Virus record (IMG/VR): IMGVR_UViG_2585427763_000009 | DNA from: a virus | Lineage: Duplodnaviria; Heunggongvirae; Uroviricota; Caudoviricetes | Direction: 5' to 3' (one strand) | DNA: 23,766 bases | Part shown: positions 6,108 to 23,766 of the stretch, in pieces | How positions within the stretch are numbered: the stretch's first letter is position 1 | Layout of the letters: each line of letters opens with the position of its first letter | Made by a program: the position numbers and the translations under genes | Notes under the pieces: generated by a model | The model's database searches: none | The model's input: the letters and a program-made list of their open reading frames with translations, nothing else | What the model was told of the DNA's origin: nothing

Positions 6108-6482
6108 ATGGGGAAGCAAGGCAAAGGCAAAGGCAACAAAAATCAGGTTAAGGTTACGTGGGCTCAGGCGTGGCGGGATGTAATGATAAGAGCCATGTCT
6201 AATGGTCAGTTGATACCTATTACCATCAGTATTATTTTAATGATTGCTGCATGGAGGTTACCAAAAACAGACTTGTCCAATTTAGCCTTCTCTATTGTTG
6301 ATGGCTTTAAGGAGCATTCCTTGGTTGGTTGGGCTATCTCGGTAATAGTGGGTTTGGCTTGGTCTGCACATGCGCGAATCATGAGGCGCTGTTTTAGTTC
6401 CGAGGCACAGAGAATCGGTAACGAGAAAACAAAGTATCAACAAAGACAGACCACTCAAGCCTTGGGTACAAGTGATAAATAG
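6108..6482 (+). CDS. Small membrane protein, two predicted transmembrane helices (124 aa; true start may be the ATG at 6183)
   Basis: AT-rich ORF; hydrophobic segments LIPITISIILMIAAWRL and LVGWAISVIVGLAWSAHA; first gene after A in the cargo slot; a GGCGGGA Shine-Dalgarno-like run precedes the 6183 ATG. Confidence 0.5.
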   Translation: MGKQGKGKGNKNQVKVTWAQAWRDVMIRAMSNGQLIPITISIILMIAAWRLPKTDLSNLAFSIVDGFKEHSLVGWAISVIVGLAWSAHARIMRRCFSSEAQRIGNEKTKYQQRQTTQALGTSDK

Positions 6483-6502
6483 TTGTTTATTTAGGAGTTA
6501 TT

Positions 6503-7060
6503 ATGCTGACAGTGCTGTTTTATGTGCTGTTGGGTTTAGGCGCAGCACACTTCATTTACGAGCGAATCATTTTGCCGTCCATCCGACTTCATTATAGAAA
6601 CCAATTGTTTGCGCTTCGTGATGTCGCTAGGAGGAAAATCATTGATGGAGGTTCCGATACTTCCATGCAAGCGGCAACACTTGTGCATGACTCATTGAAT
6701 AACGCTATCAATAGATTGCATTTACTCACGTTGCCAAACAAATTTCGTGCTCAAAAGCGTATGGCAGAAAACCATGCAATAAGGCAGAAAATTCGGCGTG
6801 AGATAGATGTTTTCAAACGCTGTGATGATAGAGAAGTTGTTGATGTACTGTTTAAATCCGGTCGGATACTTGAAAATGTACTGTTATTCAATAGCTTAAT
6901 GTTATTGCTTTACATGTTTCCATTTGTCCTTGCTGTATGGTTCTGTGTTAGGGTCATAAAGACAGCAAGTAGTTTAGTACAGTGGGTCAAAGGAAGAGAT
7001 TTAGAGGAAGCTATAATGCTGCTTCCTGATACTCAGGTTGAAAAGGTTGTATACGCATAA
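6503..7060 (+). CDS. Membrane protein with N-terminal and C-terminal hydrophobic helices (185 aa)
   Basis: Starts 20 bp after the previous ORF behind an AGGAG Shine-Dalgarno; hydrophobic N-terminus (LTVLFYVLLGLGAAHFIY) and a C-proximal hydrophobic stretch (LLFNSLMLLLYMFPFVLAVWFCV); followed by a strong terminator. Confidence 0.55.
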   Translation: MLTVLFYVLLGLGAAHFIYERIILPSIRLHYRNQLFALRDVARRKIIDGGSDTSMQAATLVHDSLNNAINRLHLLTLPNKFRAQKRMAENHAIRQKIRREIDVFKRCDDREVVDVLFKSGRILENVLLFNSLMLLLYMFPFVLAVWFCVRVIKTASSLVQWVKGRDLEEAIMLLPDTQVEKVVYA

Positions 7061-7062
7061 AA

Positions 7063-7088
7063 ATCACCCCTTAGGGGGTGATTTTTTT
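7063..7088 (+). terminator. Rho-independent terminator after the two-membrane-protein operon
   Basis: Perfect hairpin ATCACCCC-TTAG-GGGGTGAT followed by TTTTTTT, immediately after the stop at 7060. Confidence 0.65.
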
Positions 7089-7299
7089 ACATGACTTTTG
7101 ATTAGCTGACATTGTAAATCCGCATGTATCAGATGCATTGTTTTGCATGTGGAAATGGGTGTTTTCACTGCCAGCTATCGCTACATGTAGCAAAAACACG
7201 GGCTTAATAAGAAATCATTCTGCCATAAGGCATAACTTCCCCGCGTGCTCAGGTATTGACGTCATAGATATGGATCTTTTTTAATCAAGGTATGGTATT

Positions 7300-8247
7300 A
7301 TGAAGATATTTATTAGTTGGTCAGGTCAGGACAGCCTGGAGATAGCAAAAGTATTACGGGATTGGATACCGAATGTTATTCAAGTAGCTGAGCCGTACGT
7401 ATCAGCGGAAGATATTGATAAAGGCACTCGCTGGGCGACTGATATATCAAAGGAACTTGATGACTCTTCTTATGGGATTATTTGCCTTACAAAAAATAAT
7501 ATTAATGCACCGTGGATAAATTTTGAGGCGGGTGCTTTAGGTAAAAAGGTTGATAAGAGCCGGGTTAGTCCTTTCTTGTTTAAAATTAAACCATCTGAGA
7601 TAACAGGCCCAATATTACAATTCCAGTATACTCGTTCGGATGATAAGAACGATATTTTGAAGTTGATGTTGTCAATAAATAATCAAGCAGGATTTTTGAC
7701 TGAAGAACGCTTAACTAAAGCTTTCGAGCAATGGTGGCCAAGTTTAGAGCGTGAGTTAGATAACATTCAAGATATTAACCCTGTAGATAAAGATTCCACT
7801 AAAAAAACAAAAGGTGATTCGACTTCTGAGATACAAAATCTTTCCAAAATTGTTGAAAGTTTGCTGGATATTAGCCGAACAAATCACCAATTATTGCGTG
7901 ATCCAGCATCATTATTGCCAGAAGAATATGTTAGCAAAATAATAAACAGGGAAGGGCGTAAAGAAACTGTTTTAAAAATTGTAGCTTCTGATTTATTATC
8001 CATGCATCATTCACTAATTCGTGTAAAAAGAAGATTTATTCGTCGTGGTATTGATGAAACATCTAGGAGCGAGTTAATTGAATCATTAAATAAAATGATA
8101 ATGGATTGTTCTAGAGTAATCGCTCACTTAGATAATTATTGTGGGGCTTCATCAAACAATATGTTCAATAGTGCGCTTAGATTGCGGACCAGAAATTTAA
8201 TTGACATGATGGATGAGGAGGATGCAGAACGGGATGAAATGGAATAA
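7300..8247 (+). CDS. TIR-domain protein (N-terminal TIR-like fold ~aa 1-150, C-terminal helical domain of unknown function; 315 aa)
   Basis: N-terminus KIFISWSGQDS (bacterial TIR beta-A strand pattern) and SYGIICLTKNNINAPWINFEAGAL (TIR S-x-W-x-x-x-E pattern, candidate catalytic Glu76 at nt 7525-7527); AT-rich; motif-level recognition only, no search. Confidence 0.6.
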   Translation: MKIFISWSGQDSLEIAKVLRDWIPNVIQVAEPYVSAEDIDKGTRWATDISKELDDSSYGIICLTKNNINAPWINFEAGALGKKVDKSRVSPFLFKIKPSEITGPILQFQYTRSDDKNDILKLMLSINNQAGFLTEERLTKAFEQWWPSLERELDNIQDINPVDKDSTKKTKGDSTSEIQNLSKIVESLLDISRTNHQLLRDPASLLPEEYVSKIINREGRKETVLKIVASDLLSMHHSLIRVKRRFIRRGIDETSRSELIESLNKMIMDCSRVIAHLDNYCGASSNNMFNSALRLRTRNLIDMMDEEDAERDEME

Positions 8248-9000: not shown

Positions 9001-9918
9001 ATGGATTATACGAGCTATATAATAGGACAGCTTCAGGTTGAGGATATTATTGATGCAATTAAAGGCGTTAATAATACTAATGTCATAAAAGATTATGTGC
9101 TGCCTGTAGTATTACCAATTATATCTTCTGTGCTGAGTTACTTTATTGCAACTAGGTTGTTTTATCGGCAGGAGGACCTTAAAGCACAAAGAAGAAAGGT
9201 AAGCGTTGTAAATAAATGTATTTATGACTACTTTTCTGCAATGACAACGTTGTTGCAAATTAAAGGGAATTATTATGGTGGGGTAAGTATAAGTGAAAAT
9301 CCTATCGAGAGGGCTTTAGCTTTTCCTGTTGTGGTTTTTTCTGGTGCTCCTCTATCATCAGATTTAAGTGAGTTGGCCTGTATATTGAGTCAAAAGGGAG
9401 TAGGGAATAATAGAGAGCCAGCAAAGACTACTAACTGGGGGGATGCTTTTGCTGTTAGTGATATAGCAAGAAGGTTTAACAGCCTATTGGCTGCATTAAA
9501 TGTTAGGAATGATTTTGATGACACCTATAGAGGAATGATTATTGAATCAACAGGTTCACCTTTGCCTACGATGCGTTTTAAAAATGATGATATTGTTAAT
9601 GCTATAGGTAGTAATAAGGCAGCTTATTACATTGATATTACTGAGCAAATAATGATTATGATAGATGTTTTGTTGCTTGATATTAATCTGTTGCTCAAAG
9701 AGTTGCCATTGTATGCTGAATCGCTGTTTGACAAAAGAGTAATGCAAGAAGATTCAGGGATTCTTAAATTCAATGATTTGCACGAACGTTTTCCTCTACT
9801 TATGAAACCTGTAACGCCACCTTCGATTAAACTCATGTCTGATTATTTGGGGTACAGTGAAGATGAGATCTTACGACGCTATCCATACCCGTTCTTTAAT
9901 ATGCATGATTGTGAATGA
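9001..9918 (+). CDS. Hypothetical membrane-anchored protein (305 aa), translationally coupled to the upstream lipoprotein gene
   Basis: ATG 2 nt after the lipoprotein stop (TGATAATG); one hydrophobic helix (~aa 32-54, VLPVVLPIISSVLSYFIATRLF); AT-rich; no motif I recognise. Confidence 0.55.
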   Translation: MDYTSYIIGQLQVEDIIDAIKGVNNTNVIKDYVLPVVLPIISSVLSYFIATRLFYRQEDLKAQRRKVSVVNKCIYDYFSAMTTLLQIKGNYYGGVSISENPIERALAFPVVVFSGAPLSSDLSELACILSQKGVGNNREPAKTTNWGDAFAVSDIARRFNSLLAALNVRNDFDDTYRGMIIESTGSPLPTMRFKNDDIVNAIGSNKAAYYIDITEQIMIMIDVLLLDINLLLKELPLYAESLFDKRVMQEDSGILKFNDLHERFPLLMKPVTPPSIKLMSDYLGYSEDEILRRYPYPFFNMHDCE

Positions 9919-10198: not shown

Positions 10199-11233
10199 TC
10201 AGCCGTTGTCAGTGTCCAGTGAGTAGTTTTTAAAGCGGATGACCTCCTGACCGAGCCAGCCGTTTATTTCCCGAATCCTGTCCTGTAACGGGATAAGTTC
10301 ATTGCGGACAAAGACCTTTGCCACTTTCTCAATATCGCCCAGCGACCCGACGTTTTCCGGCTTGCCACCCATCAACTGAAAGGGGATGCGGTGCGCGTCC
10401 AGCAGGTCAGCGGCGCTGGCTTTTTTGATATTAAAAAAATCGTCCTTCGTGGCCACTTCACTGAGCGGGATAATTTTAATGCCGTCGGCTTTTCCCTGTG
10501 GGGCATAGAGAAACAGGTTTTTAAAGTTATTGCGGCCTTTCGACTTCACCATGTTTTCGCGGAGCATTTCGATATCGTTGCGATCCTGCACGGCATCAGT
10601 GACGTACATGATGTATCCGGCATGTGCGCCGTTTTCGTAATACTTGCGGCGGAACAGCGTGGCCGACTCATTCAGCCAGGCAGAGTTAAGGGCGCTGAGA
10701 TATTCCGGCAGACCGTACAGCTCCTGATTAATATCCGGCTCCAGCAGGTGAAACACGGAGCCGGGCGCGAAAGGTGTCGGCTCGTTGAAGGACGGCACCC
10801 ACCAGTAAACATCCTCCTCCACGCCACGGCGGGTATATTTTGCCGGTGAGGTTTCCAGTCTGATGACCTTACCGGTGGTGCTGTAACGCTTTTCCAGAAA
10901 CGCATTACCGAATACCAGAAAATCCAGCACAAAGCGGCTGAAATCCTGCTGAGAAAGCCACGGGTGTGGGATAAACGTTGAGGCCAGAATGTTACGTTTG
11001 ACGTAAATCGGTGAGCTGTGATGCACGGCAGCACGCAGGCTTTTTGCCAGACCGGTAAAGCTGACTGGTGGCTCATACCATCTGCCGTTACTGATGCACT
11101 CGACGTAATCCAGAATGTCACGGCGGTCGAGTACCGGCACCGGCTCACCAAAGGTGAATGCCTCCATTTTCGGGGCGCTGGCGGTCATTTTTTTTGCCGC
11201 AGGTTGCGGTGTTTTCCCTTTTTTCTTGCTCAT
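10199..11233 (-). CDS. Q: Capsid portal protein gpQ (344 aa)
   Basis: 344-aa reverse-strand ORF; N-terminus MSKKKGKTPQPAAKKMTASAPKMEAFTFGEP matches remembered P2 gpQ; correct size and position next to cos. Confidence 0.88.
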   Translation of the reverse strand: MSKKKGKTPQPAAKKMTASAPKMEAFTFGEPVPVLDRRDILDYVECISNGRWYEPPVSFTGLAKSLRAAVHHSSPIYVKRNILASTFIPHPWLSQQDFSRFVLDFLVFGNAFLEKRYSTTGKVIRLETSPAKYTRRGVEEDVYWWVPSFNEPTPFAPGSVFHLLEPDINQELYGLPEYLSALNSAWLNESATLFRRKYYENGAHAGYIMYVTDAVQDRNDIEMLRENMVKSKGRNNFKNLFLYAPQGKADGIKIIPLSEVATKDDFFNIKKASAADLLDAHRIPFQLMGGKPENVGSLGDIEKVAKVFVRNELIPLQDRIREINGWLGQEVIRFKNYSLDTDNG

Positions 11234-12042
11234 CAGTAAAACTCCAGAATGGTGGATGTCAGCGGGGTGCTGATACCGGCGGTGAGTGGCTCATTTAACA
11301 GGGCGTGCATGGTCGCCCAGGCGAGGTCGGCGTGGCTGGCTTCCTCGCTACGGCTGGCCTCATAGGTGGCGCTGCGTCCGCTGCTGGTCATGGTCTTGCG
11401 GATAGCCATGAACGAGCTGGTGATGTCGGTGGCGCTGCGTCCGCTGCTGGTCATGGTCTTGCGGATAGCCATGAACGAGCTGGTGATGTCGGTGGCGCTG
11501 CGTCCGCTGCTGGTCATGGTCTTGCGGATAGCCATGAACGAGCTGGTGATGTCGGTGGCGCTGCGTCCGCTGCTGGTCATGGTCTTGCGGATAGCCATGA
11601 ACGAGCTGGTGATGTCGGTGGCGCTGCGTCCGCTGCTGGTCATGGTCTTGCGGATAGCCATGAACGAGCTGGTGATGTCGGTGGCGCTGCGTCCGCTGCT
11701 GGTCATGGTCTTGCGGATAGCCATGAACGAGCTGGTGATGTCGGTGGCGCTGACGTCATATTCCAGACAGCCACGGCGGATGACGTCTTTTGCCTTGAGC
11801 ACCATTGCGGTTTTCATTTCCGGCGTGTAGCGGATATCGCGTGCGGCGGGATAGAACGAGCGCACGAGCTGGAACACGCCGACACCGAGGCCGGTGGCAT
11901 CAATTCCGATGTATTCGACGTTGTATTTTTCGGTGAGTTTGCGGATGGATTCCGCCTGAGTGGCAAAGTCCATGCCTTTCCACTGGTGACGCTCAAGTAT
12001 TCTGAATTTACCTCCGGCCACCACCGGCGGTGCCAGCACCAC
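11233..12042 (-). pseudogene. P: 3' remnant of terminase ATPase/nuclease subunit gene P: 5'-truncated, carrying an expanded in-frame tandem repeat
   Basis: Reverse-strand frame ends 1 nt into the Q start (P2 P-Q arrangement) and contains a terminase nuclease-like motif (YIGIDATGLGVGV), but only ~270 codons remain versus ~590 in P2 gpP; the upstream partner on the + strand is lysozyme K, not O/N/M. Confidence 0.7.
11371..11748. repeat. Perfect tandem repeat, 6 copies of a 63-bp unit (in frame; encodes SATDITSSFMAIRKTMTSSGR x6 on the reverse strand)
   Basis: Unit GCTGCGTCCGCTGCTGGTCATGGTCTTGCGGATAGCCATGAACGAGCTGGTGATGTCGGTGGC starts at 11371, 11434, 11497, 11560, 11623 and 11686 with no mismatches; phase is ambiguous by about 6 nt because the flanks share GGTGGC / GCTG. 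Confidence 0.9.
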
Positions 12043-12058
12043 GCATCCGGCGCTGGCC

Positions 12059-12502
12059 GTGTCCGAAGGGACGGCGAATCATCCGCTGACGAAAAACCGG
12101 GGCTATGACGTGATAGTCACCGGACTGGACGGAAAGCCGGAAATTTTCACCGACTACAGTGACCACCCGTTCGCACATGGTCGACCGGCGAAGGTGTTTA
12201 ACCGTCGCGGTGAAAAATCCACGGCCTCCGGTCGCTATCAGCAGCTTTACCTGTTCTGGCCGCATTACCGCAAACAGCTTGCCCTGCCGGATTTCAGTCC
12301 GTTGTCACAGGACAGGCTCGCCATTCAGTTGATCCGCGAACGCGGTGCACTGGATGACATCCGGGCGGGACGCATTGAGCGCGCCATTTCACGCTGTCGC
12401 AATATCTGGGCGTCCCTGCCGGGTGCCGGTTACGGTCAGCGTGAGCATCCACTGGAAAAACTGGTCACCGTCTGGCGTACCGCCGGCGGCGTACCGGCTT
12501 AA
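12059..12502 (+). pseudogene. K: Endolysin (lysozyme) gpK lacking its first ~18 codons; a GTG at 12059 could still start a 147-aa product
   Basis: Translation SEGTANHPLTKNRGYDVIVTGLDGKPEIFTDYSDHPFAHGRPAKVFNRRGEKSTASGRYQQLYLFWPHYRK matches remembered P2 gpK from about residue 19 to the end; no in-frame ATG upstream; holin gene Y is absent. Confidence 0.7.
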
Positions 12503-12516
12503 ACGGAGTAAACACC

Positions 12517-12942
12517 ATGAAGAAATTATCCCTTTCACTGATGCTGAATGTGCCGCTGGCGCTGATGCTGGCACTGTCCCTGATTTACCCGCAGAGCGTG
12601 GCCGTCAGTTTTGTCGCCGCCTGGGCGATTCTGGCGACGGTTATCTGTGTGGTTGCCGGTGGTGTCGGCGTGTATGCCACTGAGTATGTGCTGGAACGCT
12701 ACGGGCGGGAGCTGCCGCCGGAATCGCTGGCCGTGAAGATTGTCACGTCGCTGTTTTTGCAGCCGGTGCCGTGGCGCAGACGGGCAGTAGCTCTGGTGGT
12801 GATGGTGGCGACGTTTATCTCGCTGGTCGCTGCCGGGTGGATTTTTACCGCGCTGATTTATCTTGTGGCGTCGCTGTTTTTCCGGCTGATACGTAAAGCC
12901 TGCCGTCAGCGTTTTGAGGGGCGGGAACCATGTCAAAGCTGA
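12517..12942 (+). CDS. lysA: Lysis regulatory membrane protein LysA (141 aa)
   Basis: 141-aa multi-pass hydrophobic protein directly after K, GGAG Shine-Dalgarno; same size and position as P2 lysA. Confidence 0.78.
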   Translation: MKKLSLSLMLNVPLALMLALSLIYPQSVAVSFVAAWAILATVICVVAGGVGVYATEYVLERYGRELPPESLAVKIVTSLFLQPVPWRRRAVALVVMVATFISLVAAGWIFTALIYLVASLFFRLIRKACRQRFEGREPCQS

Positions 12943-13355
12943 TGATTGTGCTGGTTGTGCTGTTATCGCTGGCGGTGGCGGGGCTGTTTCTGGTGAAGCA
13001 TGAAAACGCCAGCCTGCGCGCCTCGCTGGACAGGGCGAACAACGTCGCCAGTGAACAGCAGACGACCATCACCATGCTGCAAAATCAGCTTCATGTTGCC
13101 ATCACCAGGGCAGACAAAAACGAGCTGGCGCAGGTGGCACTGCGTCAGGAACTGGAGAACGCCGCGAAGCGTGAAGCACAGCGCGAGAAAACCATCACGA
13201 GGTTACTTAATGAAAACGAAGATTTTCGCCGCTGGTATGGCGCTGACCTGCCTGATGCTGTGCGCCGGTTGCACCAGCGCCCCGCCTGCACCGACGCCAG
13301 TGATTGTCGCCAACGCCTGCCCGAAAGTGAGCCTTTGCCCGATGCCGGGCAGTGA
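12930..13355 (+). CDS. lysB: Inner-membrane spanin LysB (Rz-like, 141 aa)
   Basis: N-terminal membrane anchor then coiled-coil-like sequence; same size and position as P2 lysB; the lysC frame is embedded in it. Confidence 0.78.
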   Translation: MSKLMIVLVVLLSLAVAGLFLVKHENASLRASLDRANNVASEQQTTITMLQNQLHVAITRADKNELAQVALRQELENAAKREAQREKTITRLLNENEDFRRWYGADLPDAVRRLHQRPACTDASDCRQRLPESEPLPDAGQ

Positions 13356-13500
13356 CCCGGAGACGAACGGCGATTTAAGTGCCGATATCCGGCAGCTTGA
13401 GAACGCGCTGGCACGTTGTGCCAGCCAGGTAAAAATGATTAAACACTGTCAGGACGAAAACGATGCTCAAACCCGACAGCCTGCGCAGGGCGCTGACTGA
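13210..13500 (+). CDS. lysC: Outer-membrane lipoprotein spanin LysC (Rz1-like, 96 aa), embedded in the +1 frame of lysB
   Basis: ATG at 13210; lipoprotein signal MKTKIFAAGMALTCLMLCAGC (lipobox LCAGC); proline-rich mature region; embedded spanin arrangement as in P2. Confidence 0.7.
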   Translation: MKTKIFAAGMALTCLMLCAGCTSAPPAPTPVIVANACPKVSLCPMPGSDPETNGDLSADIRQLENALARCASQVKMIKHCQDENDAQTRQPAQGAD

Positions 13501-13930
13501 TGCCGTCACGGTGCTGAAAACTAACCCCGATATGCTGCGGATATTCGTGGATAACGGGAGTATTGCCTCCACACTGGCGGCGTCGTTGTCATTCGAAAAG
13601 CGTTACACGCTCAATGTCATTGTGACCGACTTTACCGGTGATTTTGACCTGCTCATCGTGCCGGTGCTGGCGTGGCTGCGGGAAAATCAGCCCGACATCA
13701 TGACCACCGACGAAGGCCAGAAAAAGGGCTTCACGTTTTATGCAGACATCAACAATGACAGCAGCTTTGATATCAGTATCAGCCTGATGCTGACCGAGCG
13801 CACGCTGGTCAGTGAGGTTGACGGTGCGCTGCATGTGAAGAATATCCCGGAACCTCCGCCGCCGGAGCCAGTCAATCGCCCGATGGAGCTTTATATCAAT
13901 GGTGAACTGGTGAGCAAGTGGGATGAATGA
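13463..13930 (+). CDS. R: Tail completion protein gpR (155 aa)
   Basis: 155 aa, same size and order as P2 gpR. Confidence 0.82.
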   Translation: MLKPDSLRRALTDAVTVLKTNPDMLRIFVDNGSIASTLAASLSFEKRYTLNVIVTDFTGDFDLLIVPVLAWLRENQPDIMTTDEGQKKGFTFYADINNDSSFDISISLMLTERTLVSEVDGALHVKNIPEPPPPEPVNRPMELYINGELVSKWDE

Positions 13931-14375
13931 GTTTAAGCGTTTTGAAGACCGACTGACCGGACTGATTGAATCGCTGTCACCGTCTGGGCGTCGGCGACTG
14001 AGTGCAGAACTGGCGAAACGTCTGCGGCAGAGTCAGCAGCGTCGGGTGATGGCACAGAAAGCTCCGGACGGCACACCCTACGCACCACGCCAGCAGCAGA
14101 GCGCCAGAAAAAAGACCGGTCGCGTTAAGCGAAAAATGTTTGCGAAACTTATCACCAGTCGTTTTTTGCATATCCGCGCCAGCCCTGAACAGGCATCAAT
14201 GGAGTTTTACGGCGGGAAGGCACCGAAAATCGCCAGTGTGCATCAGTTCGGTCTGTCGGAAGAAACCCGGAAAGACGGTAAGAAAATTGATTATCCGGCG
14301 CGTCCTCTGCTCGGCTTTACCGGTGAGGATGTGCAGATGATTGAAGAGATTATCCTGGCTCACCTTGAGCGTTAG
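13923..14375 (+). CDS. S: Tail completion protein gpS (150 aa)
   Basis: 150 aa, same size and order as P2 gpS; start overlaps the R stop. Confidence 0.82.
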   Translation: MNEFKRFEDRLTGLIESLSPSGRRRLSAELAKRLRQSQQRRVMAQKAPDGTPYAPRQQQSARKKTGRVKRKMFAKLITSRFLHIRASPEQASMEFYGGKAPKIASVHQFGLSEETRKDGKKIDYPARPLLGFTGEDVQMIEEIILAHLER

Positions 14376-14406
14376 TTTTATCCAGACAGAGGCTGATGCG
14401 CAATTA

Positions 14407-14439
14407 AACATTGAGCGGCCATGCTGGTCGCTCAATGTT
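14407..14439. terminator. Hairpin between convergent genes (S on +, cargo gene on -); candidate bidirectional terminator
   Basis: Perfect 11-bp inverted repeat AACATTGAGCG / CGCTCAATGTT around an 11-nt loop, in the 71-bp gap between two convergent stop codons; flanking T/A runs are weak. Confidence 0.4.
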
Positions 14440-14446
14440 TAGAGGT

Positions 14447-15232
14447 TTATGAGTGATTTTTATTTGATGCTTTGTATTCTAAAACCTTCTTATTGGCGTA
14501 AAAGAATTTTGTATATGACAGGAATATAACCAGACCTGAAGTGAAATAGACGAGGGATAGTATTAATAATGCTTTTTTGCGACTGTTATTATCTTTAATC
14601 TCCAGGCTTAACCATTCGGAGTCCTCCTCGTTTAGCTGTAAGAGCTTATTGCAGGCGATTTCAGGAAGTGTGTCTTTTATAAATACGTTTTGCAGTCTCT
14701 TGCAATCGGCAAGGCTATAAGTTTTATTAAATTCAACTGCTTTATTTTTGAAGGATAAAAGAACTTTGTCACTATAAACATAGTACATCATGTTTTTATA
14801 TGGTATGCCTATGGCATCCCTTACTATAACGGATTGTTCGTTGTGTATGTAACATGCGAGGAGAATGTAAAAAATACTGGCCAGAATTACAATTATTGTT
14901 TTAATTATGTGTGGTGGTTTTGTTATGTCACCCCAGATGCGAGTAAGGAAAAAATACGATGTTTTTAGTTTTCCATCAATCAGTCCCTGCTGTATCATTC
15001 TCACATTTTCAATGCCTGATACATTGATTCCGTTAATTATTTTAAATAGTTGAATGTCGCGCCACTCGCGGTCAAGTCTTTTTAATTTTTTGTCTGAATA
15101 TCCAAAATTGAAATAATGTGCAATAAGCCTCATAAGGTTACTTTTACCAAAGCTAAAAAATGCTAATACTGCAAAGCTACAAAGGAAAAAAACGATTAGC
15201 CCCCACACATTAGTCACATTATAGCTGACCAT
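14447..15232 (-). CDS. Hypothetical membrane protein (261 aa, about 3 transmembrane helices), moron in the S/V slot
   Basis: Strongly AT-rich reverse-strand ORF between S and V where P2 carries the non-essential orf30; hydrophobic helices at the N-terminus, middle (IIKTIIVILASIFYILLACYI) and C-terminus (ALLILSLVYFTSGLVIFL). Confidence 0.6.
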   Translation of the reverse strand: MVSYNVTNVWGLIVFFLCSFAVLAFFSFGKSNLMRLIAHYFNFGYSDKKLKRLDREWRDIQLFKIINGINVSGIENVRMIQQGLIDGKLKTSYFFLTRIWGDITKPPHIIKTIIVILASIFYILLACYIHNEQSVIVRDAIGIPYKNMMYYVYSDKVLLSFKNKAVEFNKTYSLADCKRLQNVFIKDTLPEIACNKLLQLNEEDSEWLSLEIKDNNSRKKALLILSLVYFTSGLVIFLSYTKFFYANKKVLEYKASNKNHS

Positions 15233-15315
15233 TACGCTCTCCTTGAATGTTGTCTGGTAGTTCTACAAATGAATCCAGATAGCATAACTTTTATATATTG
15301 TGCAATCTCACATGC

Positions 15316-15951
15316 ATGAACACTCTCGCAAATATTCAGGAACTCGCGCGCGCACTGCGCAACATGATTCGCACCGGCATTATCGTCGAAACCGACCTTA
15401 ACGCCGGTCGCTGCCGCGTGCAGACCGGCGGCATGTGCACCGACTGGCTTCAGTGGCTGACCCATCGCGCCGGTCGTTCGCGCACATGGTGGGCACCTTC
15501 CGTGGGGGAACAGGTGCTGATTCTGTCCGTGGGCGGTGAACTCGACACGGCGTTTGTTCTGCCGGGGATTTATTCCGGCGATAATCCCGCGCCGTCTGCG
15601 TCGGCGGATGCCCTGCATATCCGTTTCCCTGACGGGGCGGTGATTGAGTATGAACCCGAAACCAGTGCGCTCACGGTAAGCGGAATTAAAACGGCCAGCG
15701 TGACGGCTTCCGGTTCTGTTACTGCCACTGTGCCGGTGGTCATGGTGAAAGCGTCAACCCGCATCACCCTGGACACACCGGAGGTGGTCTGCACCAACAG
15801 GCTGATTACCGGCACGCTGGAAGTGCAGAAGGGCGGGACGATGCGCGGCAACATTGAACACACCGGCGGTGAACTCTCATCAAACGGTAAGGTACTGCAT
15901 ACCCATAAACACCCCGGCGACAGCGGCGGCACAACCGGGAGTCCTCTATGA
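15316..15951 (+). CDS. V: Baseplate spike/assembly protein gpV (211 aa from ATG 15316)
   Basis: Matches P2 gpV size and order; start set at MNTLANIQ; stop overlaps the W start. Confidence 0.85.
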   Translation: MNTLANIQELARALRNMIRTGIIVETDLNAGRCRVQTGGMCTDWLQWLTHRAGRSRTWWAPSVGEQVLILSVGGELDTAFVLPGIYSGDNPAPSASADALHIRFPDGAVIEYEPETSALTVSGIKTASVTASGSVTATVPVVMVKASTRITLDTPEVVCTNRLITGTLEVQKGGTMRGNIEHTGGELSSNGKVLHTHKHPGDSGGTTGSPL

Positions 15952-16295
15952 CAGCGCGTTATCTCGGAATGAATCGCAGTGATGGCCTGACGGTCACTGA
16001 CCTTGAGCATATCAGCCAGAGTATCGGCGATATCCTGCGCACACCGGTCGGCTCACGGGTGATGCGCCGTGATTACGGCTCGTTGCTGGCGTCAATGATT
16101 GACCAGCCGCAGACCCCGGCGCTTGAGTTGCAGATTAAGGTCGCCTGTTACATGGCGGTGCTGAAATGGGAACCCCGCGTCACCCTGTCATCCGTCACCA
16201 CGGCGCGCAGTTTTGACGGGCGAATGACGGTCACGTTAACCGGTCAGCACAACGACACCGGTCAGCCACTTTCGTTAACCATCCCTGTGAGTTGA
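15948..16295 (+). CDS. W: Baseplate wedge protein gpW (115 aa)
   Basis: 115 aa, same size and order as P2 gpW. Confidence 0.85.
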   Translation: MTARYLGMNRSDGLTVTDLEHISQSIGDILRTPVGSRVMRRDYGSLLASMIDQPQTPALELQIKVACYMAVLKWEPRVTLSSVTTARSFDGRMTVTLTGQHNDTGQPLSLTIPVS

Positions 16296-16299
16296 AACC

Positions 16300-17208
16300 A
16301 TGCCGATTATCGACCTGAACCAGCTACCCGCACCGGATGTGGTCGAGGAGCTGGACTTTGAAACCATTCTTGCCGAACGCAAGGCGACACTGATTTCCCT
16401 TTACCCGGAAGACCAGCAGGAGGTGGTCGCCCGTACCCTGACGCTGGAATCGGAGCCTCTCGTCAAACTGCTGGAAGAAAATGCTTATCGTGAGCTTATC
16501 TGGCGTCAGCGTGTGAATGAGGCCGCACGGGCGGTGATGCTGGCCTGTGCCGCCGGTAATGACCTTGATGTGATTGGTGCCAATTACAACACCACACGCC
16601 TGATTATCATCCCGGCAGATGATTCGACCATCCCGCCGACACCGGCAGTGATGGAATCTGACACCGATTATCGTCTGCGTATTCAGCAGGCGTTTGAAGG
16701 TTTAAGCGTTGCCGGGTCGGTGGGAGCCTATCAGTATCATGGTCGCAGTGCCGACGGGCGTGTCGCGGATATCTCTGTCACCAGTCCGTCTCCGGCCTGT
16801 GTCACTATCTCCGTGCTGTCCCGAGAAAATAACGGTGTCGCATCCGAAGACCTGCTGGCTGTGGTGCGTAACGCTCTTAATGGCGAGGACGTCAGGCCGG
16901 TGGCTGACCGTGTGACCGTGCAGTCTGCCGCCATTGTTGAATACCAGATAAACGCCACGCTGTATCTTTACCCTGGTCCAGAAAGCGAACCCATCCGCGC
17001 CGCCGCCGTGAAAAAACTGGAAGCGTACATCACGGCACAGCACCGGCTGGGGCGCGACATCCGTCTGTCTGCCATTTATGCCGCTTTGCATGTGGAAGGC
17101 GTGCAGCGTGTCGAACTGACTGCACCGCTGGCTGACATCGTGCTCAACAGTACGCAGGCGTCTTTCTGCACCGAATACAGCGTCGTGACCGGAGGCTCGG
17201 ATGAGTGA
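16300..17208 (+). CDS. J: Baseplate assembly protein gpJ (302 aa)
   Basis: 302 aa, same size and order as P2 gpJ. Confidence 0.85.
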   Translation: MPIIDLNQLPAPDVVEELDFETILAERKATLISLYPEDQQEVVARTLTLESEPLVKLLEENAYRELIWRQRVNEAARAVMLACAAGNDLDVIGANYNTTRLIIIPADDSTIPPTPAVMESDTDYRLRIQQAFEGLSVAGSVGAYQYHGRSADGRVADISVTSPSPACVTISVLSRENNGVASEDLLAVVRNALNGEDVRPVADRVTVQSAAIVEYQINATLYLYPGPESEPIRAAAVKKLEAYITAQHRLGRDIRLSAIYAALHVEGVQRVELTAPLADIVLNSTQASFCTEYSVVTGGSDE

Positions 17209-17731
17209 TTCGCGACTGCTGCCGACCGGCTCATCACCGCTTGAGGTCGCCGCCGCAAAAGCCTGTGCGGAAATTGAAAAAACACCGGTCAGTATTCGTG
17301 AGCTGTGGAACCCGGACTCCTGTCCGGCAAATCTGCTGCCGTGGCTGGCGTGGGCGTTTTCGGTCGACAGGTGGGATGAAAAGTGGCCGGAAGCGACAAA
17401 ACGCGCCGTTATCCGCGATGCCTATTTCATCCACTGTCATAAAGGCACTATCGGCGCAATCCGACGCGTGGTGGAGCCGCTCGGCTATCTCATCAACGTG
17501 ACGGAGTGGTGGGAAAACAGTGACCCGCCCGGCACCTTCCGGCTTGATATTGGTGTACTGGAAAGCGGTATCACAGAGGCAATGTATCAGGAAATGGAAC
17601 GGCTGATTGCCGATGCCAAACCTGCAAGCCGCCACCTTATTGGCCTGAACATTACCCGGGACATTCCCGGCTATCTGTTCGCCGGTGGTGTGGCTTACGA
17701 CGGCGATGTAATTACGGTTTACCCCGGATAA
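17201..17731 (+). CDS. I: Baseplate/tail protein gpI (176 aa)
   Basis: 176 aa, same size and order as P2 gpI; start overlaps the J stop. Confidence 0.85.
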   Translation: MSDSRLLPTGSSPLEVAAAKACAEIEKTPVSIRELWNPDSCPANLLPWLAWAFSVDRWDEKWPEATKRAVIRDAYFIHCHKGTIGAIRRVVEPLGYLINVTEWWENSDPPGTFRLDIGVLESGITEAMYQEMERLIADAKPASRHLIGLNITRDIPGYLFAGGVAYDGDVITVYPG

Positions 17732-17741
17732 GTGAGGAATA

Positions 17742-19787
17742 ATGAGCATAAAATTCAGAACCGTTATCACCACTGCCGGTGCAGCAAAGCTGGCAGCGGC
17801 AACCGCGCCGGGAGGGCGGAAGGTCAACATTACCACGATGGCCGTCGGGGATGGCGGTGGTAAATTGCCTGTCCCGGATGCCGGACAGACCGGGCTTATC
17901 CATGAAGTCTGGCGACATGCGCTGAACAAAATCAGCCAGGACAAACGAAACAGTAATTATATTATCGCCGAGCTGGTTATTCCGCCGGAGGTGGGCGGTT
18001 TCTGGATGCGTGAGCTTGGCCTGTACGATGATGCGGGAACATTAATTGCCGTGGCGAACATGGCCGAAAGTTATAAGCCAGCTCTTGCCGAAGGCTCAGG
18101 GCGTTCGCAGACCTGTCGCATGGTCATCATCGTCAGCAGTGTGGCCTCAGTGGAGCTGACCATTGACACCACAACGGTGATGGCGACTCAGGATTACGTT
18201 GATGACAAAATTGCAGAGCATGAACAGTCACGACGTCACCAGGACGCCTCGCTGACCGCAAAAGGTTTTACTCAGTTAAGCAATGCGACCAACAGCACGT
18301 CTGAAACACTGGCCGCAACGCCGAAAGCGGTTAAGGCCGCATATGACCTTGCTAACGGGAAATATACCGCACAGGACGCTACCACAGCGCGAAAAGGTCT
18401 TGTCCAGCTAAGTAGTGCGACCAACAGCATATCTGAAACGCTCGCCGCAACACCAAAAGCCGTTAAGACGGTAATGGATGAAACGAACAAGAAAGCGCCA
18501 TTAAACAGCCCTGCACTGACCGGAACGCCAACGACGCCAACTGCGCGACAGGGAACGAATAATACTCAGATCGCAAACACGGCTTTCGTTATGGCCGCGA
18601 TTGCCGCCCTTGTAGACTCGTCGCCTGACGCACTGAATACGCTGAACGAGCTGGCGGCGGCGCTGGGCAATGACCCGAATTTTGCTACCACCATGACTAA
18701 TGCGCTTGCGGGTAAGCAACCGAAAGATGCCACTTTGACGGCGCTGGCGGGGCTTGCTACTGCGGCAGACAGGTTTCCGTATTTTACGGGGAATGATGTT
18801 GCCAGCCTGGCGACCCTGACAAAAGTCGGGCGGGATATTCTGGCTAAATCGACCGTTGCCGCTGTTATCGAATATCTCGGTTTACAGGAAACGGTAAACC
18901 GAGCCGGGAACGCCGTGCAAAAAAATGGCGATACTTTGTCCGGCGGGCTTACTTTTGAAAACGACTCAATCCTTGCCTGGATTCGAAATACTGACTGGGC
19001 GAAGATTGGATTTAAAAATGATGCCGATGGTGACACTGATTCATATATGTGGTTTGAAACAGGTGACAACGGCAATGAATATTTCAAATGGAGAAGTCGC
19101 CAGAGCACCACAACAAAAGACCTGATGAATCTTAAATGGGATGCTCTGTATGTTCTTGTTAAAGCCCTTTTCAGCAGTGAAGTAAAAATATCTACAGTCA
19201 ATGCACTGAGGATATTTAATTCATCTTTTGGGGCTATTTTTCGCCGTTCTGAAGAAAACCTGTATATCATTCCTACACGAGAAAATGAGGGTGAAAATGG
19301 AGATATTGGGCCATTAAGGCCATTCGGCATCAACTTAAGAACAGGAGTTGTGTCTGTTGGTAATGGTGCCAGGATTGATGGCGGGCTGGCACTTGGCACG
19401 AATAACGCGTTGGGTGGGAACTCTATTGTTCTTGGTGATAACGACACCGGATTTAAACAAAATGGCGATGGTAATCTGGATGTTTATGCTAATAACGTCC
19501 ATGTTATGCGCTTTGTTTCCGGAAGCATTCAAAGTAATAAGACCATAAATATTACGGGGCGTGTTAATCCCTCGGATTACGGTAACTTTGATTCCCGCTA
19601 TGTGAGAGATATCAGACTTGGCACACGTGTTGTCCAGACCATGCAGAAAGGGGTGATGTATGAGAAAGCAGGGCACGTAATTACCGGGCTTGGTATTGTC
19701 GGTGAAGTCGATGGTGATGACCCCGCAGTATTCAGGCCAATACAAAAATACATCAATGGCACATGGTATAACGTCGCACAGGTGTAA
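17742..19787 (+). CDS. H: Tail fiber protein gpH (681 aa) with an internal ~25-aa repeat and a lower-GC C-terminal receptor-binding region
   Basis: N-terminus MSIKFRTVITTAGAAKLAAATAPGG matches remembered P2 gpH; tail-fiber repeat copies ...QLSNATNSTSETLAATPKAVKAAYD... and ...QLSSATNSISETLAATPKAVKTVMD... Confidence 0.85.
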   Translation: MSIKFRTVITTAGAAKLAAATAPGGRKVNITTMAVGDGGGKLPVPDAGQTGLIHEVWRHALNKISQDKRNSNYIIAELVIPPEVGGFWMRELGLYDDAGTLIAVANMAESYKPALAEGSGRSQTCRMVIIVSSVASVELTIDTTTVMATQDYVDDKIAEHEQSRRHQDASLTAKGFTQLSNATNSTSETLAATPKAVKAAYDLANGKYTAQDATTARKGLVQLSSATNSISETLAATPKAVKTVMDETNKKAPLNSPALTGTPTTPTARQGTNNTQIANTAFVMAAIAALVDSSPDALNTLNELAAALGNDPNFATTMTNALAGKQPKDATLTALAGLATAADRFPYFTGNDVASLATLTKVGRDILAKSTVAAVIEYLGLQETVNRAGNAVQKNGDTLSGGLTFENDSILAWIRNTDWAKIGFKNDADGDTDSYMWFETGDNGNEYFKWRSRQSTTTKDLMNLKWDALYVLVKALFSSEVKISTVNALRIFNSSFGAIFRRSEENLYIIPTRENEGENGDIGPLRPFGINLRTGVVSVGNGARIDGGLALGTNNALGGNSIVLGDNDTGFKQNGDGNLDVYANNVHVMRFVSGSIQSNKTINITGRVNPSDYGNFDSRYVRDIRLGTRVVQTMQKGVMYEKAGHVITGLGIVGEVDGDDPAVFRPIQKYINGTWYNVAQV

Positions 19788-20539: not shown

Positions 20540-21133
20540 ATGTTTACTAAGCGACGATTAAAAAATATTAACTGGGAGGCAAGTTCAGTGATTCTTGCTA
20601 TGGTTCTCTTTGTTGGAAATATATTTTATACAAATCATCGTGATGATATAAGCATGGAGGCTGAGAGGGACAGTATCAGAACAATGTTTGCATATGAAAT
20701 CGCTAATAACCATCGCGCTCTCACTTTTCTTGATAAAACGAGACATATTGGCTTTGACGAAAATTCGGAGCATTTTGTTGGCGAGCCTTTTGCCATTAAT
20801 GTCAAATCATTAGGGGGACCTCGCTTACAGATTGCATTAAACCAGACTGATAAAGTGTTTAAATCCTACTTCGGCGAATTAAGTAAGCTTGATAAAGAGG
20901 ATGTTACTCTTCTTATGGACTATTACCATGAGCAAAGCATCCTGCTGGAGCGTGTAAAATCTACGTTACAGAAGATGAAAAGTGGTAATGATATTAAAGT
21001 TGATATTGATGGTTGCTTATTAGAAGAACACTTCATGAATGAGCTTAATCTTTCTAATATTTTGCTTAAACGCTATAGCTATTTATTATCACAACACGCT
21101 AAGGAACATAAAACAAAAGATTTACATAATTGA
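20540..21133 (+). CDS. Hypothetical membrane-anchored protein (197 aa) in the Z/fun slot between G and FI
   Basis: AT-rich ORF after a 220-bp AT-rich spacer; single N-terminal hydrophobic helix (SSVILAMVLFVGNIFY) then a soluble domain; no motif I recognise. Confidence 0.55.
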   Translation: MFTKRRLKNINWEASSVILAMVLFVGNIFYTNHRDDISMEAERDSIRTMFAYEIANNHRALTFLDKTRHIGFDENSEHFVGEPFAINVKSLGGPRLQIALNQTDKVFKSYFGELSKLDKEDVTLLMDYYHEQSILLERVKSTLQKMKSGNDIKVDIDGCLLEEHFMNELNLSNILLKRYSYLLSQHAKEHKTKDLHN

Positions 21134-21340: not shown

Positions 21341-21365
21341 GCGGGCGAATTGCCCGCATTTTCTT
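21341..21365 (+). terminator. Rho-independent terminator upstream of the FI remnant
   Basis: Hairpin GCGGGC-GAATT-GCCCGC followed by ATTTTCTTT. Confidence 0.5.
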
Positions 21366-21462
21366 TATCTGTTGTTTCATCCACTGACCAGCCAGGTCAA
21401 ATAGCGTCTCATGTACTACCCAACGGAAAATAGTTGCACCCATTAACCACGGAGTTAAACGG

Positions 21463-21576
21463 ATGAGTGACTATCATCACGGCGTGCAGGTGCTGGAGAT
21501 TAACGACGGCACCCGCGTCATTTCCACCGTATCCACAGCCATTGTCGGCATGGTCTGCACGGCTAGCCTCCCGTAA
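21463..21576 (+). pseudogene. FI: Tail sheath gene FI remnant: first ~35 codons only, then a premature stop at the deletion junction
   Basis: Translation [35 protein letters not shown] matches the remembered P2 gpFI N-terminus, then LP-stop. Confidence 0.7.
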
Positions 21577-22863: not shown

Positions 22864-23766
22864 ATGAATCAATCTTATGGACGGCTGGTCAGTCGGGCGG
22901 CGATTGCTGCGACGGCGATGGCTTCGCTGCTATTGCTGATTAAAATTTTTGCATGGTGGTATACCGGGTCGGTGAGTATTCTCGCCGCGCTGGTGGATTC
23001 GCTGGTGGATATCGGCGCGTCGTTGACGAATTTACTGGTGGTGCGATATTCCCTGCAACCTGCCGACGATAATCACTCGTTTGGTCACGGTAAAGCTGAG
23101 TCCCTCGCGGCGCTGGCGCAAAGTATGTTTATCTCCGGTTCGGCACTATTCCTGTTTTTGACGGGTATTCAACATCTGGTATCTCCAACACCGATGACAG
23201 ATCCAGGCGTCGGGGTTATCGTGACAATTGTGGCGCTAATTTGTACGATTATCCTTGTCTCGTTTCAGCGTTGGGTGGTGCGCCGGACGCAAAGCCAGGC
23301 GGTGCGGGCTGATATGCTACATTACCAGTCTGATGTTATGATGAACGGCGCAATTCTGCTGGCGCTGGGGTTGTCCTGGTACGGCTGGCATCGCGCCGAT
23401 GCTCTGTTTGCATTGGGGATCGGCATCTATATTTTATATAGCGCGTTACGCATGGGATATGAGGCGGTACAGTCATTACTGGATCGCGCATTGCCTGATG
23501 AGGAACGGCAAGAAATTATTGATATCGTGACTTCCTGGCCGGGTGTTAGCGGCGCTCACGATCTTCGCACGCGGCAGTCAGGGCCGACCCGCTTTATTCA
23601 GATTCATTTGGAAATGGAAGACTCTCTGCCTTTGGTTCAGGCACATATGGTGGCGGATCAGGTAGAGCAGGCTATTTTACGGCGTTTTCCGGGATCGGAT
23701 GTGATTATCCATCAGGACCCCTGTTCCGTCGTACCCAGGGAGGGTAAACGGTCTATGCTTTCATAA
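22864..23766 (+). CDS. fieF: Host cation-diffusion-facilitator ferrous-iron/zinc efflux transporter FieF (YiiP), 300 aa, complete
   Basis: Translation from ATG 22864 ([49 protein letters not shown]...) matches remembered E. coli FieF; the window ends on its stop codon. Confidence 0.85.

Follow-up and report, generated by a model that had tools for sequence, protein, structure and literature searches.

Probable recent tandem amplification of a 63-bp segment in the terminase-gene remnant of a doubly defective P2-like prophage

How does a segment that occurs once in the large terminase gene of phage P2 come to stand six times, without a single mismatch, in a remnant of that same gene, and is six the number that the bacterium truly carries? 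The question is posed by a 23,766-nucleotide stretch of caudoviral DNA (IMG/VR record IMGVR_UViG_2585427763_000009), referred to here at its full length as the window. Both inspection of the sequence and an exact-string count place six perfect 63-bp units, head-to-tail and spacer-free, on its minus strand at 11365-11742, with unit starts at 11365, 11428, 11491, 11554, 11617 and 11680. In this register, which is set by the ancestral boundaries of the unit, the coding (minus) strand reads six times SATDITSSFMAIRKTMTSSGR; a terminal, partial seventh copy consisting of the first 10 bases of the unit, GGTGGCGCTG, occupies 11743-11752 on the same strand and brings the whole array to 388 bp. A preliminary description made from the sequence alone had reported six mismatch-free 63-bp copies at 11371-11748, which is the same array, likewise 378 bp long, with its register displaced by 6 bases. 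Tandem Repeats Finder delimits the repeat at 11365-11757 (period 63, 6.2 copies, score 777) and detects no other tandem repeat in the window. The 10-mer GGTGGCGCTG alone occurs seven times in the window against 0.05 expected, invariably at a unit start or at the array end, which rules out a chance origin of six identical 63-mers. Exact units at a spacing of 63 bp, adjoining head-to-tail without spacers, make this a tandem repeat in the sense used for variable-number tandem repeats (VNTRs). Each unit spans 21 codons, so that the array is read in frame through all six repetitions of SATDITSSFMAIRKTMTSSGR in the minus-strand open reading frame (ORF) 11233-12042, whose translation bears out the earlier remark that the reading frame is preserved and a 21-aa peptide recurs six times.

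The gene that houses the array is a 3′ remnant of the P2-type large terminase gene P (11233-12055, minus strand), of which only the RNaseH-like nuclease domain, Terminase_6C, is left. Homology to P sets in at about nt 1,265 of the gene's 1,773. In the remnant Pfam finds Terminase_6C only, with neither the N-terminal DNA-binding Terminase_5 nor the ATPase domain Terminase_6N, while intact relatives encode a 590-aa terminase with all three domains. The ORF 11233-12042 is open throughout its 269 codons (the GenBank start is the second GTG, at 12039, giving the 268-aa KEM26521.1). Within it, the Terminase_6C match covers profile positions 21-135, is interrupted by the array near position 135 of 155, and then continues with the rest of the domain (Pfam). 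P2 late promoters sit in the P/O intergenic region; this region (D7 14518-14690) was removed with the deletion described below, and no sigma-70-like promoter site was detected on either strand within 11200-14500. A functional gpP would possess the N-terminal and ATPase domains and its own late promoter, and the remnant has none of these. Because it keeps only the nuclease domain and no promoter was detected, the array sits in a pseudogene, and the preliminary supposition that its host gene is no longer under selection accords with the missing domains and promoter region.

The wider setting is that of a prophage damaged twice. Measured against the intact prophage that occupies the corresponding site in E. 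coli D7, deletion 1 takes out D7 13253-18567. Lost with this segment are the 5′ part of P, the intergenic region between P and O, genes O, N, M, L, X and Y, and ~47 bp at the start of K. The deletion junction, a 4-bp microhomology (GCTG) at 12052-12055, fuses the 3′ third of P to K, and the N-terminally truncated lysozyme gene K (12053-12502, plus strand; annotated as 149 aa, or 147 aa from a GTG at 12059) is a convenient marker of this deletion. The portal gene Q, next downstream after the P remnant in what was once the P-Q operon, is intact (10199-11233, minus strand, 344 aa). A second deletion, with its junction at 21564-21567 and again defined against the D7 prophage, removed the tail genes starting inside FI (sheath) and reaching far enough into D to take most of it. 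The two deletions together render the prophage doubly defective. It spans from the integrase gene (1-1011; beside cpxP in relatives) to fieF (22822 onward), and has lost its head and tail-core genes, with integrase, replication, lysis, baseplate and fibre genes kept.

What the locus looked like before the array arose can be read from its relatives. P2 itself has one copy of the 63-bp unit, in agreement with the preliminary description, which took the native gene to be single-copy. The unit likewise stands once in each of 82 phage records and ~1,490 E. coli genomes, where the matching stretch measures 741 bp; that of the window measures 1056 bp and is thus longer by exactly 5 × 63 bp. In P2 and the one-copy sisters, GGTGGCGCTG already brackets the unit as a 10-bp direct repeat, the two copies being 63 bp apart. 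The expanded form was sought with a 50-nt probe centred on the copy-to-copy junction, a full match to which requires a duplicated unit, so that no single-copy genome can match it fully. The probe matched 0 of 5,426 complete E. coli genomes and 0 among 50,697 phage records; a positive control, a probe for the native boundary of equal length and at the same threshold, matched 1,354 E. coli genomes. IMG/VR, the JGI metagenomes and the GTDB species genomes likewise yielded no match to a 37-nt exact junction pattern. When the six units alone were used as a protein query, two proteins stood far above the single-copy background, both from sibling colonies and each with two units. That intact terminases might carry the same array, the comparison by which the preliminary description proposed that its reading could be overturned, is rejected, as the junction is absent from all collections searched, the phage records included, and all portal-anchored loci examined encode 590-aa terminases.

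The siblings are informative as to both the age and the size of the array. Window positions 1233-22039 are 100% identical to contig JORG01000123.1 (154,488 bp; GCA_000713035.1) of the commensal ST827 isolate E. coli 6_319_05_S3_C2, where the prophage lies between cpxP and fieF and where the six-copy array is present in the deposited sequence. The isolates of this project come from Tanzanian children, with up to three colonies taken per stool sample, and were sequenced as 100-bp HiSeq 2000 reads assembled with MaSuRCA 2.3.2 (Richter et al., 2018, PMC6222053). Colonies 6_319_05_S3_C1, C2 and C3 belong without exception to ST827, phylogroup B2 and serotype O4:H40, and were obtained from one infant on 15 April 2009; 6_175_07_S3_C1 and 6_175_07_S3_C2, from another child on the same date, share this ST, phylogroup and serotype (PMC6222053, Table S1). 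Exact-unit counts on loci with the identical deletion-1 junction gave six copies in the main contig of 6_319_05_S3_C2 (the window), two in a redundant 973-bp contig of the same assembly (JORG01000033.1, running from window 12059 to 10835), five in 6_319_05_S3_C1 and two in 6_319_05_S3_C3. The other seven such loci, among them 6_175_07_S3_C1, have one copy. Three-, four- and seven-copy forms are nowhere on record. The flanks of these loci are identical to the window, bar isolated differences, and the 163-aa one-copy remnant is encoded on 69 contigs, including a 4.71-Mb chromosome. Copy number thus differs among closely related isolates, one versus two, five or six, as is typical of a VNTR, and the junction is confined to the three colonies from stool sample S3 of subject 6_319_05. 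An origin of the 973-bp contig in a second, intact P2-like prophage was considered and rejected, for the contig begins with K-side bases past the deletion-1 junction.

From these comparisons it follows that the duplication is real. Reads from a one-copy template share only the 10-bp repeat and could not build the junction; the junction is nevertheless present in three independent libraries, and the identical pipeline returned a single copy for 6_175_07_S3_C1. It is also young. Since the other carriers of deletion 1 are single-copy, the expansion postdates the inactivation of the gene; since its flanks are identical to those of the single-copy sisters and the one-copy form of the clone was circulating at the same time, in another child on the same day, the expansion must be very recent, much as had been proposed from the perfect identity of the units.

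Taken together, the data make it highly probable that the array is genuine and very recent, the product of a tandem amplification, neutral to selection, of 63 bp in a dead P remnant, begun by microhomology-seeded slippage and continued by slippage or unequal recombination, the number six being an assembler's estimate. The anatomy of the locus, namely a seed repeat at its boundaries and perfect copies between them, points to this mechanism. The seed would have been the direct repeat GGTGGCGCTG, which occurs twice in the ancestor at a distance of 63 bp; a replicating strand that slipped and misaligned from one 10-bp repeat onto the other would have given the first duplication; and the resulting perfect 63-bp repeats could then have changed in number through more slippage or through unequal sister-strand recombination. 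Such a model predicts one GGTGGCGCTG per junction, a prediction that each junction fits, and an ancestral flanking direct repeat with one copy retained at every junction is the signature expected of microhomology-seeded duplication. The preliminary description had likewise favored recent slippage or unequal recombination in an unselected gene, a view that these findings reinforce through an ancestral 10-bp direct repeat that its author had not seen. The array itself appears to be neutral. A 63-bp unit amounts to 21 codons and maintains the frame automatically, so that the intact frame implies no selection, and a remnant without ATPase half and promoter would leave the array with no functional consequence. 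Two embellishments of the slippage scheme were rejected. Hairpin assistance is unnecessary, given that neither strand of unit plus seed folds remarkably as single-stranded DNA (z = -0.98 and -0.08), and stimulation of recombination by Chi is discounted because the only Chi sites of the window, at 22989 and 23001, lie 11 kb away in fieF.

The size of the array is a separate matter from its existence. The value six is a MaSuRCA estimate from 100-bp reads, not a measured count. No read of this length spans a perfect 388-bp array, and the four reconstructions of it came out as 6, 2, 5 and 2, with 6 and 2 in one assembly and 5 and 2 in its siblings, exactly as befalls a mis-counted repeat. The assembly artefact that the preliminary description had held open is in this respect half right: the count of six is irreproducible, while a one-copy truth is contradicted by a junction recovered from three independently sequenced colonies. 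At least two copies are certain. At least five are likely, as judged from the assemblies rather than from the reads: two copies are the expected collapsed form, being the shortest layout that uses every junction-containing read, and five- and six-copy contigs are hard to obtain from a true two-copy template.

Conceivably, the discrepant counts are instead true within-host variation, the locus being an unstable, hypermutable minisatellite of which colonies 6_319_05_S3_C1, C2 and C3 really hold five, six and two copies. We regard this as a credible minority reading. Three colonies of one clone from one stool did return three counts, and, as is well established for repeat instability in E. coli, slippage and unequal exchange proceed readily between perfect 63-bp repeats. 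Yet the assembly of 6_319_05_S3_C2 alone holds both a six- and a two-copy version, which indicates assembler ambiguity, and a 100-bp read can count no further than ~2-3 units. Two copies are what a collapsed layout would give; three-, four- and seven-copy alleles are missing from the record; and three alleles in three colonies would demand an unusually high mutation rate. Were the reading correct, copy number would have diversified to 2, 5 and 6 in the gut of one infant within weeks to months of its origin from the one-copy clone circulating in the village, and the locus would document in vivo, within a bounded time, how a bacterial tandem repeat is born and first expands.

The converse, that a simple duplication of two copies is the truth and that the five- and six-copy contigs arose by over-expansion in the assembler, is improbable. 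Two of the four reconstructions do have two copies, and the local reads are noisy, with T>G changes after GGCGGG (10834-10852) in several assemblies of the project at the very place where the leftover contig ends. Against this, three or more consecutive units could be laid out only from two-junction reads or from weak false overlaps, the over-expansion would have had to occur independently in two assemblies with similar outcomes (5 and 6), and collapse, in our estimation, is the usual failure of short-read assemblers. A neutral amplification to a higher number, probably at least five, remains the preferred account of the four reconstructions.

Two blemishes in the assemblies of this clone may be recorded here. 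The T>G differences, at 10834, 10847 and 10852, just after a GGCGGG motif, occur in three HiSeq/MaSuRCA assemblies of the project (6_319_05_S3_C1 and C3, and 6_175_07_S3_C1 at 10834 only) and are absent from same-lineage assemblies of other projects; the 973-bp contig ends at 10835. They look like Illumina sequence-specific errors and not like real SNPs. In 6_319_05_S3_C3, a colony otherwise identical, the stretch matching window 21346-21375 carries dense substitutions, mostly to T, and two 1-base insertions, a cluster that is probably low-quality consensus rather than biology.

That the expansion was selected, the repeated peptide or its DNA having acquired a role, such as regulatory site, novel protein or decoy against phages, is very improbable. 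The preserved frame, the ORF open over 269 aa and the intact neighboring portal gene might be cited in its favor. A 63-bp unit, however, keeps the frame without any help from selection; the promoter region is deleted and 11200-14500 contains no promoter-like site; the array is limited to the isolates of one child while the one-copy form is widespread; and folding of the unit reveals no unusual structure. Pfam offers little more: its only above-cut-off match to the repeat region, Rep_fac_C, scored 25 against a cut-off of 23.6 bits without a discrete matched stretch and was disregarded, as was TMP_3 on the repeated peptide, which fell below the cut-off. Lastly, the proposal that the whole repeat is artefactual and the genome one-copy, which a draft assembly of 100-bp reads might invite, is effectively refuted by a junction that one-copy reads sharing only 10 bp cannot yield, that recurs in three independently prepared libraries, and that is absent from the identically processed same clone and from every other genome searched.

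How, then, should the locus be classed? With microhomology-seeded bacterial tandem duplications and amplifications it shares the 10-bp boundary repeat in the ancestor, one such repeat per junction and perfect copies; unlike in typical selected gene amplifications, the 63-bp unit is far smaller and selection is not apparent. With bacterial VNTRs or minisatellites such as MLVA loci it has in common a head-to-tail array, a unit of tens of base pairs and a copy number that differs among near-identical isolates (one versus at least two). In contrast to these, it is not a conserved polymorphic locus, being absent from 5,426 complete genomes and restricted to one sub-clone, and its allele sizes derive from assemblies. 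On this footing the locus counts both as a nascent VNTR and as a microhomology-seeded tandem duplication. It does not rank among phase-variable loci, because a 21-codon unit never shifts the frame and the gene is a promoterless remnant. Set beside intact P2 gpP (590 aa), the remnant matches the 3′ third of P almost identically at the DNA level, and the array falls inside the nuclease domain. The remnant differs in lacking the N-terminal two thirds and the promoter, and 105 extra residues interrupt its nuclease domain, as befits a pseudogene. The locus is also a case of mis-counting by a short-read assembler, having the hallmarks of an array (388 bp) longer than the reads (100 bp), clonal colonies with 5, 6 and 2 copies, and two versions in one assembly; it departs from spurious repeats in that the repeat itself is genuine and its length alone uncertain.

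The biological significance of the array is small, for this is textbook slippage at a short direct repeat in unselected DNA. Its value lies in being a clean, dated example, in which the one-copy ancestor was sampled in a second child and the expanded form in the first on the same day. It would serve as a fine marker splitting two ST827 sub-lineages in studies of household or village transmission. It also carries a caution, that copy numbers in short-read drafts are not to be taken literally, a single clone here having given 5, 6, 2 and 2.

The remainder of the prophage contains several accessory genes and comparanda that deserve brief mention. E. coli YJR (H26) was considered as a sister of the window and rejected on account of a different rearrangement with a junction of its own. 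Its P2-like remnant (NZ_CM146016.1, 4595-16059) has a 282-bp P fragment adjoining a full-length lysozyme gene, and split tail-sheath fragments on either side of an inverted block of tail and lysis genes, an arrangement that suggests an inversion plus deletion unrelated to those of the window. Between tail genes S and V, on the opposite strand, two ORFs of 261 and 128 aa are inserted (14447-15232 and 15232-15618, minus strand). The D7 prophage lacks this segment, which does occur in a relative that keeps its head genes (locus L015). Neither ORF has a Pfam or PADLOC match, and the 261-aa protein is listed in only 94 blocks of the collection. They are possibly uncharacterized moron or defence cargo, and read-through transcription of the P remnant may proceed from these minus-strand genes. 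A further ORF of 197 aa (20540-21133, plus strand), following the tail-fibre assembly gene in a region where the window diverges from the D7 prophage, matches no family in Pfam or PADLOC.

The richest cargo lies between replication gene A and the portal gene, at the position of the old/tin variable region of P2. A 305-aa ORF in this region (9001-9918, plus strand), with no Pfam or PADLOC match, is conserved beside the TIR genes described next in the D7 prophage and in sister contigs, in which a 94-aa gene is called just upstream. The TIR genes are three adjacent plus-strand ORFs, 6108-6482, 6503-7060 and 7300-8247, with PADLOC matches to 2TM-TIR (E 2e-58), 1TM-TIR (E 3e-75) and TIR-TM (E 2e-118), respectively, and the third bears a Pfam TIR_2 domain. 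By these matches, 6108-8247 appears to be a 2TM-1TM-TIR anti-phage system, complete and of a catalogued type, housed in a defective prophage.
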